Numbered from the stretch's first letter, positions 54,396 to 60,671 are shown. The stretch: DNA of 64,000 nucleotides from Alphaproteobacteria bacterium (GCA_035509415.1 DATJLQ010000007.1:696-64695), one strand, 5' to 3'. Notes: generated by a model not told the origin, from the sequence alone. Program-made: numbers and translations.

Positions 54396-55394
54396 ATGAG
54401 CATCGTTCAGAATCTGTTCGGATCGCCGGCCCGCGGGCGGGGCCAGCCCGAACCCACTCTGCGCGCGCCCGAACTCCATCGCGACGCGAGCGCCGTTCCG
54501 GCGCACGTCGAAGTGGCGAATTGGCGTTACGAGAACATCGACGTCGAGCTCGATCCCGAGGCACGGACCTTCTGGTGCTTCATGCGCACCAAGGAGCGCG
54601 GCAGCTTCACGCTCGAGCTGATGCAGGACATCGCGCACATGCAGCGCTCCTTCCCGCGCCTGTTCGCCGAGCGCGCGCACGAGCCGGAGAAGCCGTTCGA
54701 GTACTTCGTGTTCGCGTCGCGCATTCCGGGCACCTACAATCTGGGCGGCGATCTCGGCTTCTTCGCCGAGCGCATCCGCGCGCGCGACCGCGCGGCCTTG
54801 AGCCTCTACGCCCACACCGCGGTGCGCGCGATCCACAAGAACCACACCGCGTTCGACGTGCCGGTCGTGACCATGGCCTTGGTCCAGGGCGACGCGCTCG
54901 GCGGCGGGTTCGAGTGCGCGCTCTCGCTCGACATGATCGTGGCCGAGCGCAGCGCCAAGATGGGGCTGCCGGAGATCCTGTTCAATCTCTTCCCCGGCAT
55001 GGGCGCCTACAGCTTCCTCTCGCGCCGGCTCGACGCCGCGCGCGCCGAGAAGATGATCCTCTCGGGGAAGATCTACAGCGCCGAGGAGCTCCACGAGCTC
55101 GGCATCGTCGACGTTCTGGCGGACGACGGCAACGGCGAGGAGGCGGTGCGCGAGTACATCGACCGCCACGCCTACCGGCACAACGCCTATCGCGGCGTGT
55201 TCCAGGCGCGGCGCCGGGTCAATCCGGTGCCGTTCGACGAGCTGCGCGACGTGGTCGACATCTGGGTCGAGGCGGCGCTCAGCCTCAAGGAAGCGGACTT
55301 GCGCAAGATGGAGCGGCTCACCGCGGCGCAGAACCGGCGCCGTGCCGCGACCGCCCAGCCCGAGCCGGTCGTCTCGGCGCTGCCGGCGGAGTGA
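54396..55394 (+). CDS. Enoyl-CoA hydratase/isomerase (crotonase) superfamily protein. Candidate RpfF/DSF-synthase-like enzyme.
   Basis: Crotonase fold (ALVQGDALGGGFECALSLDMIVA, LPEILFNLFPGMGA). GGAGGG RBS 9 nt before the ATG at 54396. Confidence 0.7.
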   Translation: MSIVQNLFGSPARGRGQPEPTLRAPELHRDASAVPAHVEVANWRYENIDVELDPEARTFWCFMRTKERGSFTLELMQDIAHMQRSFPRLFAERAHEPEKPFEYFVFASRIPGTYNLGGDLGFFAERIRARDRAALSLYAHTAVRAIHKNHTAFDVPVVTMALVQGDALGGGFECALSLDMIVAERSAKMGLPEILFNLFPGMGAYSFLSRRLDAARAEKMILSGKIYSAEELHELGIVDVLADDGNGEEAVREYIDRHAYRHNAYRGVFQARRRVNPVPFDELRDVVDIWVEAALSLKEADLRKMERLTAAQNRRRAATAQPEPVVSALPAE

Positions 55395-55552
55395 CGGGTC
55401 CGGCCGCGGCCGTTTGACGGTTCAGAAGGCCCTGCCCGGCGACGGGCAGGGCCCCTCCGCGCGGAAGCCGTCCGCGGCGGATGCGAGACGACACCCGGCG
55501 CCCGTCGCGGGCGTCGGCCCCCCCAAGGCCCGATCGGGCCCGATCCAGCCCC

Positions 55553-58664: not shown

Positions 58665-58982
58665 TCCTCCGGCCCCAACTTTGGCGCGTCGCACCCGGAC
58701 GTTACGCTCGTACGACGCGGCATTCTACCGGGATTTTGCGGTTTGTTGAGCCGAATGCGCGCGGGGCGCCGCCGCACCCGCGTCCCACGCGCGTGCGTGG
58801 GACGCGGCCCAATCCCAGTAATGGTTCGACGGTTACTGGCTCGATCGGGCACAGCAGCGCGCAATCCTTGCGCGTTCCGGGCCTCGATTGGGCATCGGCA
58901 ACTAACGGCGCGCCGCGCGCCCGCCGCGATGTCGAAAATATTAGAGATATATTATCGATTAGATCACCACGGTCGCTAAAGA

Positions 58983-60671
58983 ATGAAGTATAACAATGCA
59001 AAAGCCCTCGGGGAAAACGGCCAAGCGGGAACCAAGCGCATGTCGCCGGCACGGTCGACCAGAGCGATGGGTGACGCCGACGGCGGCGCGAGCAACAGCG
59101 TCCGCCGCCATATCGGCGCCACGCGCAAGATGCGCGTGGTGATCGTCGACGACCAGGCGACGAATCTCCGCATCATGCGGCATCTGGCGCTCGGTCTCGC
59201 CGAGACCGGCGAGGTCGAGACGTTCGCCGATCCGCTCGTCGCACTCGCCGCGGTGAAGATGGATCCGCCCGACCTCGTGGTCTCCGACTACAACATGCCG
59301 AACATGGACGGTGCCGCGTTCGTCGCCGCGTTGCGCGCGTTGCCCGATTTCAGCGACATCCCGATCGTCATCGTCACCATCTACGAGGACCGCGACTTCC
59401 GCTACAAGGCGCTCCAGGCGGGCGCGTCCGATTTCCTCCTGAGCCCGATCGACCATCAGGAGTTCCGCATCCGCCTGCGCAACCTGCTTCAGCTGCGCGA
59501 GCATCAGCGCGTGGTGCGCAACCGCGCCCTCTCGCTCGAGCGCAAGCTGGTCGAGGACAGCAACAACTTCGCCGCCAGCCTGCGCGAGCTCGAGGAGCGC
59601 CTGAAGCAGCTCATCGACGCGGTGCCGGCGATGATCAGCGTCTCCAACGCCGAGCGCCGCTATCTCTACGTCAACGAAAGCTGGTGCGACACCTACGGCA
59701 TCGCGCGCGAGGACGCGATCGGCCGGCGCCCCGAGGAGCTGTTCTCGGCCGAGCACAGCGAGGCGCTCGCGCGCGTCGACGGGCCGGTGCTCGCGAGCGG
59801 GGCCTCGGTCGAGCAGGTCGAGGAAGAGATCCGCGACCGCACCGGTGCGCGCAAGGTGCTGTTCAGCTCGAAGCTGCCGATGCGCGACCCGGCGGGCGCG
59901 GTCAACGGCATCATCTCGGTCTCGCTCGACATGACCTCGCGGAAGCGCGCCGAGGAGCAGCTCATCTCGGCGATGTGGCGCGCCGAGACGTCCGAGCGCG
60001 CGAAGCGCGCCTTCCTTTCCCAGATGAGCCACGAGCTGCGCACGCCGCTCAACGCCATCATCGGCTTCTCCGAGATGATCGCGAACGCGGTGTTCGGGCC
60101 GGTGGCGCCCGAGCGCTACGGCGCCTACGCCGCCGACATCCGCGACAGCGCCAGAAGCCTCCTCGAGATGGTGACCCACATTCTCGCCCAGGCGGATCAG
60201 GAGCAGGTGCCGCTCGAGCCGCGCGGCGAGCCGGTCGAGCTGCCCGCGGTCGCGCTGGACGCGGCGCAGACGGTGCGCGAGCGGCGCGGGGCGGCGGCGC
60301 ACATCCTGTGCCGCATCGAGCCCGGCCTGCCCGCGATCCGCGGCGACCGGCGCATGATCGAGCGCATCCTGGTCGATCTTTTGGATCACATGGTGGTGCT
60401 CGCGGGGCTCGATTGCGAGTTCGTGCTTTCGGTCAAGCTCGGGATCGCGCTCGGCGCCGAAATCGAGATTTACGCGAACCCGCCCGCGGCGGAGCGCACA
60501 GGCGCGGTCGCCTTCGCGGGCGAGCTTCCCGAGGTGCCGCTGGTGCGCGCGCTCGTCGACCTCCATGGCGGCACGCTCTTGCTCGCGAACCGCGGCCTCG
60601 GCCAGCTCTACGCGCGCGTCATTCTGCCCGCCTGGCGCATGCTCGGCGCTCCGGAGACGCCCGGCGCATAG
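58983..60671 (+). CDS. Response-regulator receiver / PAS / histidine kinase fusion protein.
   Basis: Receiver (VVIVDDQ...LVVSDYNMPNMDG), PAS, then H-box ([19 protein letters not shown]). The C-terminal ATPase looks degenerate. Alternative start at ATG 59130. Confidence 0.7.
   Translation: MKYNNAKALGENGQAGTKRMSPARSTRAMGDADGGASNSVRRHIGATRKMRVVIVDDQATNLRIMRHLALGLAETGEVETFADPLVALAAVKMDPPDLVVSDYNMPNMDGAAFVAALRALPDFSDIPIVIVTIYEDRDFRYKALQAGASDFLLSPIDHQEFRIRLRNLLQLREHQRVVRNRALSLERKLVEDSNNFAASLRELEERLKQLIDAVPAMISVSNAERRYLYVNESWCDTYGIAREDAIGRRPEELFSAEHSEALARVDGPVLASGASVEQVEEEIRDRTGARKVLFSSKLPMRDPAGAVNGIISVSLDMTSRKRAEEQLISAMWRAETSERAKRAFLSQMSHELRTPLNAIIGFSEMIANAVFGPVAPERYGAYAADIRDSARSLLEMVTHILAQADQEQVPLEPRGEPVELPAVALDAAQTVRERRGAAAHILCRIEPGLPAIRGDRRMIERILVDLLDHMVVLAGLDCEFVLSVKLGIALGAEIEIYANPPAAERTGAVAFAGELPEVPLVRALVDLHGGTLLLANRGLGQLYARVILPAWRMLGAPETPGA

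Follow-up and report, generated by a model that had tools for sequence, protein, structure and literature searches.

Does the region from position 54,396 to 60,671 of a 64,000-nucleotide (nt) stretch of DNA from an Alphaproteobacteria bacterium (GCA_035509415.1, DATJLQ010000007.1:696-64695; this whole stretch is called the window in the following) encode a quorum-sensing system of the diffusible signal factor (DSF) type? An earlier note, made from the sequence alone, had raised this possibility, as a crotonase, a hybrid sensor kinase resembling RpfC, a small PAS protein and a receiver-PAS-kinase fusion lie here next to each other. All sequence-level tests that had been proposed for this idea gave a favourable result, and we consider it likely, with a probability of about 0.78, that a quorum-sensing module of the DSF family, working with a cis-2-unsaturated fatty acid and homologous to the Rpf system of Xanthomonas, is encoded here. 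Its putative components are an RpfF-like crotonase of 332 amino acids (aa) as DSF-family synthase (54396-55394, + strand), an RpfC-like hybrid sensor kinase (55553-58093, - strand; 846 aa from the ATG at 58093) and a regulator with receiver (REC), PAS and HisKA domains (59130-60671, + strand; 513 aa from M50). As the window has a GC content of about 70%, which gives rise to many spurious open reading frames, genes were picked by their GC content at third codon positions (GC3). This value is 0.90-0.94 in all four reading frames of the locus (crotonase, kinase, the small PAS_5 gene and regulator), as expected for real genes in this DNA. Domains were assigned by scans with Pfam and NCBIfam models and structures were compared by a sequence search of the PDB. 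Coordinates, strands and domain orders in the earlier note agree with these gene calls, with the exception of a HATPase_c domain that is missing in the regulator.

DSF synthases form a cis-2-unsaturated fatty acid by acting as dehydratase and thioesterase on 3-hydroxyacyl-acyl carrier protein. The crotonase of the window, which carries the Pfam domains ECH_1 and ECH_2, reached 375 bits with the NCBIfam model NF006452 (PRK08788; cut-off 177 bits). This model also captures RpfF of Xanthomonas campestris pv. campestris (Xcc; 427 bits) and Bcam0581 (385 bits), whereas NCBIfam models of metabolic hydratases gave at most 72 bits for the crotonase. The PDB search yielded a similar picture, with RpfF (3m6m and 7zq7, 189 bits each) and Bcam0581 (5fus, 185 bits) as by far the best matches and a methylglutaconyl-CoA hydratase following at 62 bits. 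A MAFFT alignment gave pairwise identities of about 37-38% among the window crotonase, Xcc RpfF and Bcam0581, which thus represent three roughly equidistant clades. The catalytic residues Glu141 and Glu161 of RpfF and the roles of its pocket residues have been described previously (PMC9864630). Both glutamates, by which RpfF-like enzymes were to be recognized according to the earlier note, are present in the window crotonase, alongside G85, G86, L136, G137, G138, M170, W258 and L276 (Xcc numbering). They are likewise kept in all genomic relatives of the crotonase, i.e., the best 80 of at least 590 confirmed matches from a scan with the crotonase alignment using one genome per species, to which all locus counts below refer. 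Indeed, the active-site and pocket residues are each conserved in 80/80 of these relatives, except for L276 (77/80). With these pocket residues and the PDB scores of 189 and 185 versus 62 bits the protein is RpfF-like rather than a metabolic hydratase, and on sequence grounds it is a member of the clade of RpfF and the Burkholderia DSF (BDSF) synthases.

The crotonase gene has a Shine-Dalgarno sequence, GGAGGGAG (54381-54388, + strand), which was read from the sequence 7 nt upstream of its ATG and bears out the strong ribosome-binding site of its own that had been ascribed to it. Its convergent orientation to the hybrid kinase gene was confirmed as well, with a gap of 158 nt between both genes. 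The longest reading frame of the kinase covers 55553-58162 (- strand) and starts with a GTG at 58162, while the ATG at 58093 is the likelier start.

RpfC binds DSF and is activated by it, and its REC domain binds and inhibits RpfF. For a comparison with the full-length protein, an authentic Xcc rpf locus (L081) was recovered from metagenome contigs using the PDB-derived RpfF sequence; a protein search for full-length RpfC with the RpfC receiver of 3m6m had returned only fragments. The RpfF encoded by this locus is 100% identical to the query and the gene order is rpfB, rpfF, followed by the convergent rpfC, rpfH and rpfG. In a BLASTP comparison the window kinase and Xcc RpfC are 40% identical over 408 aa (E = 5e-89). 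This single segment starts at residue 41 of the query and residue 8 of RpfC and covers the sensor motif, all transmembrane segments, the DHp domain (dimerization and histidine phosphotransfer) and the catalytic ATP-binding (CA) domain. A second segment of 219 aa (34% identity) spans the REC and histidine phosphotransfer (HPt) domains. N-terminal to HisKA the kinase has about five hydrophobic segments, which form a predicted RpfC-type membrane input domain with about five transmembrane segments (57518-58093, - strand), which is colinear with RpfC residues 8-185. A tblastn search with RpfC residues 1-190 accordingly matched the window at 57506-58042 (77 bits). On the same strand follow HisKA with the phospho-acceptor histidine (57317-57514; residues 217-282; PF00512, 72.7 bits), HATPase_c with intact motifs (56831-57175; residues 330-444; PF02518, 95.7 bits), in which the alignment reveals the N, G1 and G2 boxes, a receiver with phospho-acceptor aspartate (56021-56359; residues 602-714; PF00072, 96 bits) and HPt (55604-55852; residues 771-853; PF01627, 42 bits), whose histidine aligns with H657 of RpfC. 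Indeed, H227, D650 and H804 align with H198, D512 and H657, the three phosphorylation sites of RpfC (numbering from PMC5391125), so that all three are kept. Among PDB receivers that of RpfC (3m6m_D) was the second-best match to the receiver of the kinase (93 bits).

The input domain is not recognized by any Pfam model at E ≤ 10, neither in the window kinase nor in authentic RpfC, and no RpfC- or RpfG-specific model was found among the top NCBIfam matches. A HMMER search of 1.84 billion cluster representatives, however, yielded 2043 relatives of this domain at E ≤ 1e-3, with lengths of mostly 810-880 aa among the best 150. The window input domain is 33-55% identical to those of crotonase-adjoining kinases in 68 of the 80 genomes. 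Five residues of the N-terminal sensor of RpfC, R15, D17, S18, E19 and Q22, are essential for DSF perception or binding in Xcc (Cai et al., PMC5391125). While this sensor reads MKSPLPWLKRRLSGRADSEHAQ in Xcc RpfC, it reads G-R-P-D-S-E-H-E-M in the window kinase, where the motif R-P-D-S-E-H-E-M (57998-58021, - strand) is the equivalent of R15-A-D17-S18-E19-H-A-Q22, and thus four of the five residues (equivalents of R15, D17, S18 and E19) are retained. In its general form, 66 RpfC and RpfH proteins of Xanthomonads have this motif as R-[PA]-D-[ST]-E-H-x-Q and 43 alphaproteobacterial kinases as R-P-D-[STR]-E-H-E-[MQL]. The domain order, the homology along the whole input domain and the four DSF-binding residues substantiate the resemblance to RpfC that had been noticed, and, judged by these similarities, the window kinase is a true homologue of RpfC.

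The RpfC-type input domain was also seen in other contexts, namely fused straight to GGDEF (about 350 aa), in short proteins consisting of input domain plus HisKA (about 260-290 aa), of which several are found per Inquilinus genome, and as a tandem array of two or three copies in proteins exceeding 1000 aa (P0176-P0180, P0183, P0192; P0131, P0142, P0146, P0150, P0152, P0160; P0222, P0250, P0358). In Xcc an RpfC paralogue that consists of the input domain only, RpfH (L081, 11008-11631, - strand), exhibits the same R-x-D-S-E-H-x-Q motif (MRAVLSQLRARLARRADSEHGQ), and no RpfH-like gene was present at the alphaproteobacterial loci examined.

One feature distinguishes the window kinase clearly from RpfC. 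The CA and REC domains are separated by 156 residues compared to 46 aa in Xcc RpfC, and the alphaproteobacterial homologues are consistently longer (784-882 aa in 67/67) than RpfC (726 aa). For this insert (56372-56827, - strand; kinase residues 446-597), in which the earlier note had seen a degenerate receiver-like segment, no Pfam match was obtained even at E ≤ 10. A profile built from 67 sequences of the insert, however, matched the REC profile of the family in hhalign with a probability of 89% (E = 2e-6, 111 columns), whereas control comparisons with the CA and HPt profiles gave probabilities below 0.3%. According to this alignment the lysine and the threonine or serine conserved in receivers are lost from the insert. 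A single-sequence AlphaFold2 model was poor (pLDDT, the predicted local distance difference test, of 55) and exhibited an alternating beta/alpha pattern; a Foldseek search of the PDB with this model gave no match at E ≤ 0.001. The idea of a degenerate receiver is thus supported at the profile level only, and the hhalign result suggests that the insert is a pseudo-receiver.

The third component is encoded by a reading frame at 58983-60671 (+ strand), but its homologues begin at M50 (nt 59130). It comprises, all on the + strand, an RpfG-type receiver (59136-59474; PF00072), a PAS domain (59616-59948; PAS_4, 67.8 bits), a HisKA/DHp domain with the intact H-box SHELRTPLN (60000-60200; PF00512, 52.8 bits) and a degenerate, putatively pseudo-catalytic ATPase domain (60210-60647). 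Over the receiver and the linker that follows it (163 aa), the identity to Xcc RpfG amounts to 43% (E = 6e-36). When the REC half of RpfG was searched against the window by tblastn the regulator scored 125 bits, ahead of an OmpR-type regulator (73 bits) and the receiver of the kinase (49 bits). Reciprocally, the window receiver matched RpfG in 26 loci of Xanthomonads at 83-128 bits (at least 113 bits in 25 of them), with the receiver of RpfC at no more than 42 bits as the sole second match. In the PDB its best receiver match was PleD with about 100 bits over two stretches, others being at about 50 bits. As this homology is specific in both directions, the regulator appears to be the counterpart of RpfG by its receiver, a link which the earlier note did not contain. 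The HD-GYP half of RpfG, on the other hand, had no tblastn match in the window or in the 80 related loci, and the regulator was for this reason not classed as RpfG.

In place of HD-GYP the regulator ends in a kinase-like part that has lost its catalytic motifs. No HATPase_c match was found in the regulator at E ≤ 10, and a comparison with five REC-PAS-kinases possessing a canonical CA domain (L029, L051, L062, L073 and L078) revealed DLLDHM in place of the N box NLLSNA, a deletion of the G1 box (DTGIGM) and ELPEVPL where the G2 box GTGLGL is expected. Of the REC-PAS-kinase fusion described before, the REC, PAS and HisKA parts thus hold, but not a complete and working kinase. The DHp histidine is invariant in the alignment of the closest relatives, and the H-box keeps the HExxT motif. 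To see how far the degeneration is conserved, the contigs with the closest crotonases were fetched: L161 (87% identity), L162 (79%) and L163 and L164 (73% each). They exhibit the same layout as the window, with the crotonase on the + strand, the kinase on the - strand and the regulator divergent on the + strand, and their regulators of about 512 aa contain HisKA but give no HATPase_c match. The degenerate CA motifs are identical in L161, L162 and L163, at 63-74% identity between the window and these three. The ratio of nonsynonymous to synonymous substitution rates (dN/dS, Nei-Gojobori) is 0.13-0.40 for the pseudo-CA domain and 0.03-0.22 for REC and DHp, from which it follows that the pseudo-CA domain is kept by purifying selection, though less tightly than REC and DHp. 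A frameshift in the assembly was also considered as cause of the altered CA domain and was rejected, as the deletion is in frame and common to three other contigs.

The linkage of crotonase and kinase extends far beyond this group. Nearly all of the best 80 loci are labelled Alphaproteobacteria or 'Proteobacteria', belong to several orders and include Inquilinus, Roseomonas, Ancylobacter, Xanthobacter, Microvirga, Rhizobium spp., Stappia, Pseudovibrio, Skermanella and Sphingomonadaceae. Although their flanking genes vary, the kinase gene is convergent and its tail lies within 600 nt of the crotonase stop codon in 70/80 loci; it is elsewhere in the locus in 5/80 and not found within 10 kb in 4/80, and the contig is too short in 1/80. 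In the 70 convergent loci the input domain was found 63 times, the contig ended too early in six and one locus gave no match. The adjacency of crotonase and sensor, on which the initial proposal had been founded by reference to Xanthomonas and Burkholderia, is therefore conserved across several alphaproteobacterial orders, with the convergent arrangement being also that of Xcc. Three records stand out by their titles, as the alphaproteobacterial type of crotonase is contained in 'Mycobacterium sp. KBS0706' (L002), a 'Terriglobia bacterium' metagenome-assembled genome (MAG; L009) and a 'Thermoplasmata archaeon' MAG (L050), with the kinase being also present in L002 and L050. Mislabelling or contamination of the assemblies or bins is the probable cause in these three cases.

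A protein with an RpfG-type receiver (scoring at least 80 bits) is encoded nearby in 66/80 loci. Its output part differs: 55 of these 66 loci have REC-PAS-GGDEF-EAL, usually just 5′ of the kinase gene and on the same strand, five have the REC-PAS-kinase with intact CA domain mentioned above, four have REC-PAS only and two are of unclear architecture. The REC-PAS-only loci (L026, L028, L030 and L042) are of the Acetobacteraceae/Roseomonas type, and their receiver protein of about 270 aa abuts the RpfC-like kinase; they show the module in a third output state.

Compared with RpfF/RpfC/RpfG of Xcc, the window thus shares the convergent arrangement of synthase and hybrid sensor kinase, a synthase which is 37% identical and has the same catalytic and pocket residues, a kinase which is 40% identical from the sensor motif to CA and has the same HisKA-HATPase-REC-HPt order and phosphorylation sites, and a regulator with a REC plus linker of 43% identity. 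It differs from Xcc by the PAS-DHp-pseudoCA output in place of HD-GYP, by the extra putative pseudo-receiver of about 110-150 aa and the methionine at the Q22 position of the kinase, by the lack of adjoining rpfB or rpfH genes, by a regulator gene that is divergent from the kinase gene instead of being in the same operon, and by the PAS_5 gene preceding the kinase gene. Bcam0581, the RpfF_Bc of B. cenocepacia, is with 37% identity as close to the window synthase as Xcc RpfF. The PAS-GGDEF-EAL output of most alphaproteobacterial relatives is that of RpfR from Burkholderia and Cronobacter. RpfR itself is, however, a cytoplasmic PAS receptor, whereas the putative receptor of the window is a membrane kinase of the RpfC type and its regulator lacks GGDEF and EAL; for the GGDEF-EAL part of the relatives, MorA- and DosP-type proteins were the best PDB matches, and no RpfR entry was among the matches listed. 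The alphaproteobacterial majority form, as found in Ancylobacter moscoviensis (L004) and Inquilinus limosus (L001), has a synthase of the same clade (47-67% identity), a kinase with pseudo-receiver and a regulator with RpfG-type REC and PAS like the window, but its regulator gene is co-oriented, located 5′ of the kinase gene and ends in GGDEF-EAL, while that of the window is inverted and ends in DHp-pseudoCA. The majority form hence joins an RpfC/RpfG-style input with an RpfR-style output, i.e., turnover of cyclic di-GMP (c-di-GMP) via GGDEF-EAL.

The observed homologies, conserved residues and conserved linkage are best explained by a module of DSF-family synthase, sensor and regulator, whose chemistry, ligand, phosphotransfer route and output can be predicted by homology. 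The crotonase would dehydrate a 3-hydroxyacyl carrier thioester and cleave its thioester bond to yield the signal, which the RpfC-like kinase would sense by means of its short N-terminal motif and its membrane input domain. The kinase would then autophosphorylate and pass the phosphate from histidine to aspartate and on to the histidine of HPt, which, by analogy with Xanthomonas, may phosphorylate the RpfG-type receiver of the divergent regulator. As the CA domain of this regulator is dead with regard to ATP binding, phosphorylation of the receiver most likely controls a kinase-independent activity of the DHp domain and not the hydrolysis of c-di-GMP. Candidate actions of the DHp domain are a phosphatase activity towards another response regulator, a histidine phosphotransfer to it, or heterodimerization with another kinase. 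In HisKA kinases HExxT goes along with phosphatase activity, and histidine phosphotransferases of the ChpT/Spo0B type consist of a DHp domain and a degenerate CA domain. The retained HExxT motif would favour such a receiver-gated phosphatase, phosphotransferase or heterodimerizing role. The DHp domain with its conserved histidine beside a CA-like domain devoid of ATP-binding motifs may be likened to ChpT and Spo0B, from which the regulator differs by its receiver and PAS domain in the same polypeptide. Going beyond the module itself, it is possible, although we regard this as tentative, that DSF-type sensing in this sub-clade is uncoupled from c-di-GMP, with the kinase-dead DHp domain, gated by the RpfG-type receiver, acting on another two-component pathway as a signal-controlled phosphatase or histidine phosphotransferase or as a heterodimerizing inhibitor, and that Rpf-type signaling is widespread and unstudied in Alphaproteobacteria.

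Several observations weigh against an Rpf-type module at this locus. The crotonase falls far short of the cut-off of the equivalog model for RpfF of Xanthomonads (NF053515; 221 bits, cut-off 550). Bcam0581, a proven BDSF synthase, likewise fails this model (183 bits), and the result therefore indicates that the crotonase is not the Xanthomonad ortholog without excluding it as a DSF synthase. Methionine takes the place of Q22 in the window kinase and predominates at this site among its alphaproteobacterial relatives (29 of 43 motifs, with Q in seven and L in six), whereas 66/66 RpfC and RpfH proteins of Xanthomonads have glutamine, so that the ligand may differ from Xcc DSF. Furthermore, the regulator is encoded on the strand opposite to the kinase, unlike in most relatives, and no HD-GYP, GGDEF, EAL or RpfB gene is present in the 64-kb window, i.e., the canonical c-di-GMP output is missing. 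Finally, no experimental work on DSF systems in Alphaproteobacteria was found, although subscription literature was thinly covered and this absence is no proof.

An alternative would be that the crotonase is an ordinary metabolic enoyl-CoA hydratase or isomerase that lies beside unrelated two-component genes by chance. Its Pfam domains ECH_1 and ECH_2 are generic and many NCBI records name its relatives merely 'crotonase/enoyl-CoA hydratase family protein', but with at most 72 bits for hydratase models against 375 bits for PRK08788 and 221 bits for the RpfF model, a best PDB score of 62 bits for a metabolic enzyme against 189 bits for RpfF, retention of M170, W258 and L276 from the RpfF pocket, a convergent RpfC-like kinase in 70/80 genomes despite varying neighbours and no adjacent beta-oxidation genes, this is extremely unlikely. 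The output raises a different question, as a genuine Rpf-type system might still act through c-di-GMP, with the regulator working via, or being supplemented by, a c-di-GMP enzyme whose gene lies at another genomic site. Clp, the c-di-GMP effector of Xanthomonas, is a member of the Crp family, and a Crp-family regulator gene is located 0.8 kb 5′ of the crotonase gene; moreover, 55/66 related loci fuse the RpfG-type receiver to PAS-GGDEF-EAL. The Crp gene is, however, not conserved beside the module, the window is devoid of GGDEF, EAL and HD-GYP genes, and the DHp-pseudoCA output is retained in all four contigs of the sub-clade, for which reasons we judge a hidden c-di-GMP output to be unlikely. 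It is also conceivable that the regulator was once a REC-PAS-kinase and is now decaying close to an insertion sequence, and that the module is partly non-functional here. This would fit the destroyed ATP-binding motifs, the inversion of the gene relative to most relatives and the IS1595 transposase gene and GC drop 1.2 kb downstream. It is, on the other hand, difficult to reconcile with an intact frame of GC3 0.92, with the same degenerate motifs and gene order in three contigs whose crotonases are 73-87% identical and with purifying selection on the pseudo-CA domain (dN/dS of 0.13-0.40), and a decayed regulator appears very improbable. The Rpf-type module with a conserved, degenerate kinase part in its regulator hence remains the preferred explanation.

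Other genes of the region are less closely tied to the module. The PAS_5 gene (58101-58694, - strand; PF07310, 61 bits) ends with its stop codon 7 nt 5′ of the ATG of the kinase gene, which makes a co-transcription of both genes plausible. The sole promoter-like match in 53900-60900, the sigma-70-like TCAACA-16-TAGAAT (58722-58749, - strand; a consensus match only), is located 5′ of this putative operon. The PAS_5 protein matched the MopJ model weakly (44 bits, cut-off 200), and by analogy with MopJ it may serve the kinase as a sensory partner in trans. It is encoded in the window and in the closest relative L161 only, and is absent from the 80 genome loci as well as from L162 and L163. The small PAS protein beside the kinase, to which the earlier note had pointed, is thus present, yet it is a lineage-specific accessory and not a conserved part of the module.

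The region 49747-54022, directly 5′ of the crotonase gene, is dense in signaling genes, which were identified by Pfam: a PAS-PAS-HK-REC hybrid kinase (HK, histidine kinase; 49747-51750, + strand), the OmpR-type regulator (51902-52630, - strand), the Crp/Fnr-family regulator (52829-53560, + strand) and a single-domain receiver (53561-54022, + strand). None of them is kept beside the module in the 80 related loci, and they can be regarded as candidate partners for the kinase-dead regulator. The Crp regulator, the single receiver and the PAS_5 protein were also considered as core parts of the module, which was rejected since they are not conserved in the 80 loci. Further upstream, a 373-aa protein (47441-48562, + strand), whose sole match is the catalytic domain of the RuBisCO large chain (75 bits), is probably a RuBisCO-like protein, and its gene is followed by a cupin gene (48650-49168, + strand). 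A single 2-kb bin (28001-30000) exhibits an AT skew of -0.237, unlike the remainder of the window. At the other end, 1.2 kb downstream of the regulator gene, an IS1595-family transposase (61912-62937, - strand; DDE_Tnp_IS1595 plus zinc ribbon) is encoded, and the GC content drops over the last 4 kb of the window (60000-64000) from about 0.69 via 0.62 to 0.56. Both together suggest that the locus is bordered by mobile or foreign DNA.

Parts of this picture are already reflected in annotation, as the JGI pipeline names many relatives of the crotonase 'DSF synthase' and N-terminal fragments bearing the input domain 'RpfC'; these labels on relatives are therefore already known. The literature on alphaproteobacterial DSF genes that was found consists of metagenomic gene counts only. 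A review from 2026 describes the wiring of DSF systems in two schemes, RpfC/RpfG with HD-GYP in Xanthomonas and RpfR in Burkholderia, both of which end in c-di-GMP (PMC13220807). A kinase-dead PAS-DHp output in place of a c-di-GMP-degrading enzyme appears to be a wiring that has so far not been studied. The locus described here would add to these schemes a third, widespread alphaproteobacterial lineage, in which an RpfC-type sensor with a pseudo-receiver is combined with an RpfG-type receiver that recombination has joined to various outputs, mostly PAS-GGDEF-EAL, in some cases PAS only or PAS-kinase, and kinase-dead PAS-DHp here. This rewiring of the output is, together with the pseudo-receiver and the wide distribution of a so far unstudied DSF-type lineage, the main interest of the finding; the lineage offers a natural series for asking how a single quorum-sensing input gets rewired to varied outputs. 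If the proposed reading is true, Rpf-type signaling would span at least 590 species-representative matches, including rhizobia, sphingomonads and the cystic-fibrosis opportunist Inquilinus. DSF-type production or eavesdropping would then be predicted for soil, plant-associated and clinical Alphaproteobacteria, whose habitats overlap with those of the known DSF producers Xanthomonas, Stenotrophomonas, Burkholderia and Pseudomonas, and cultured carriers are available with Inquilinus limosus DSM 16000, Ancylobacter, Xanthobacter, Microvirga, Roseomonas and Stappia. In the sub-clade represented by the window, fatty-acid-based quorum sensing would plug straight into the phosphorelay network.

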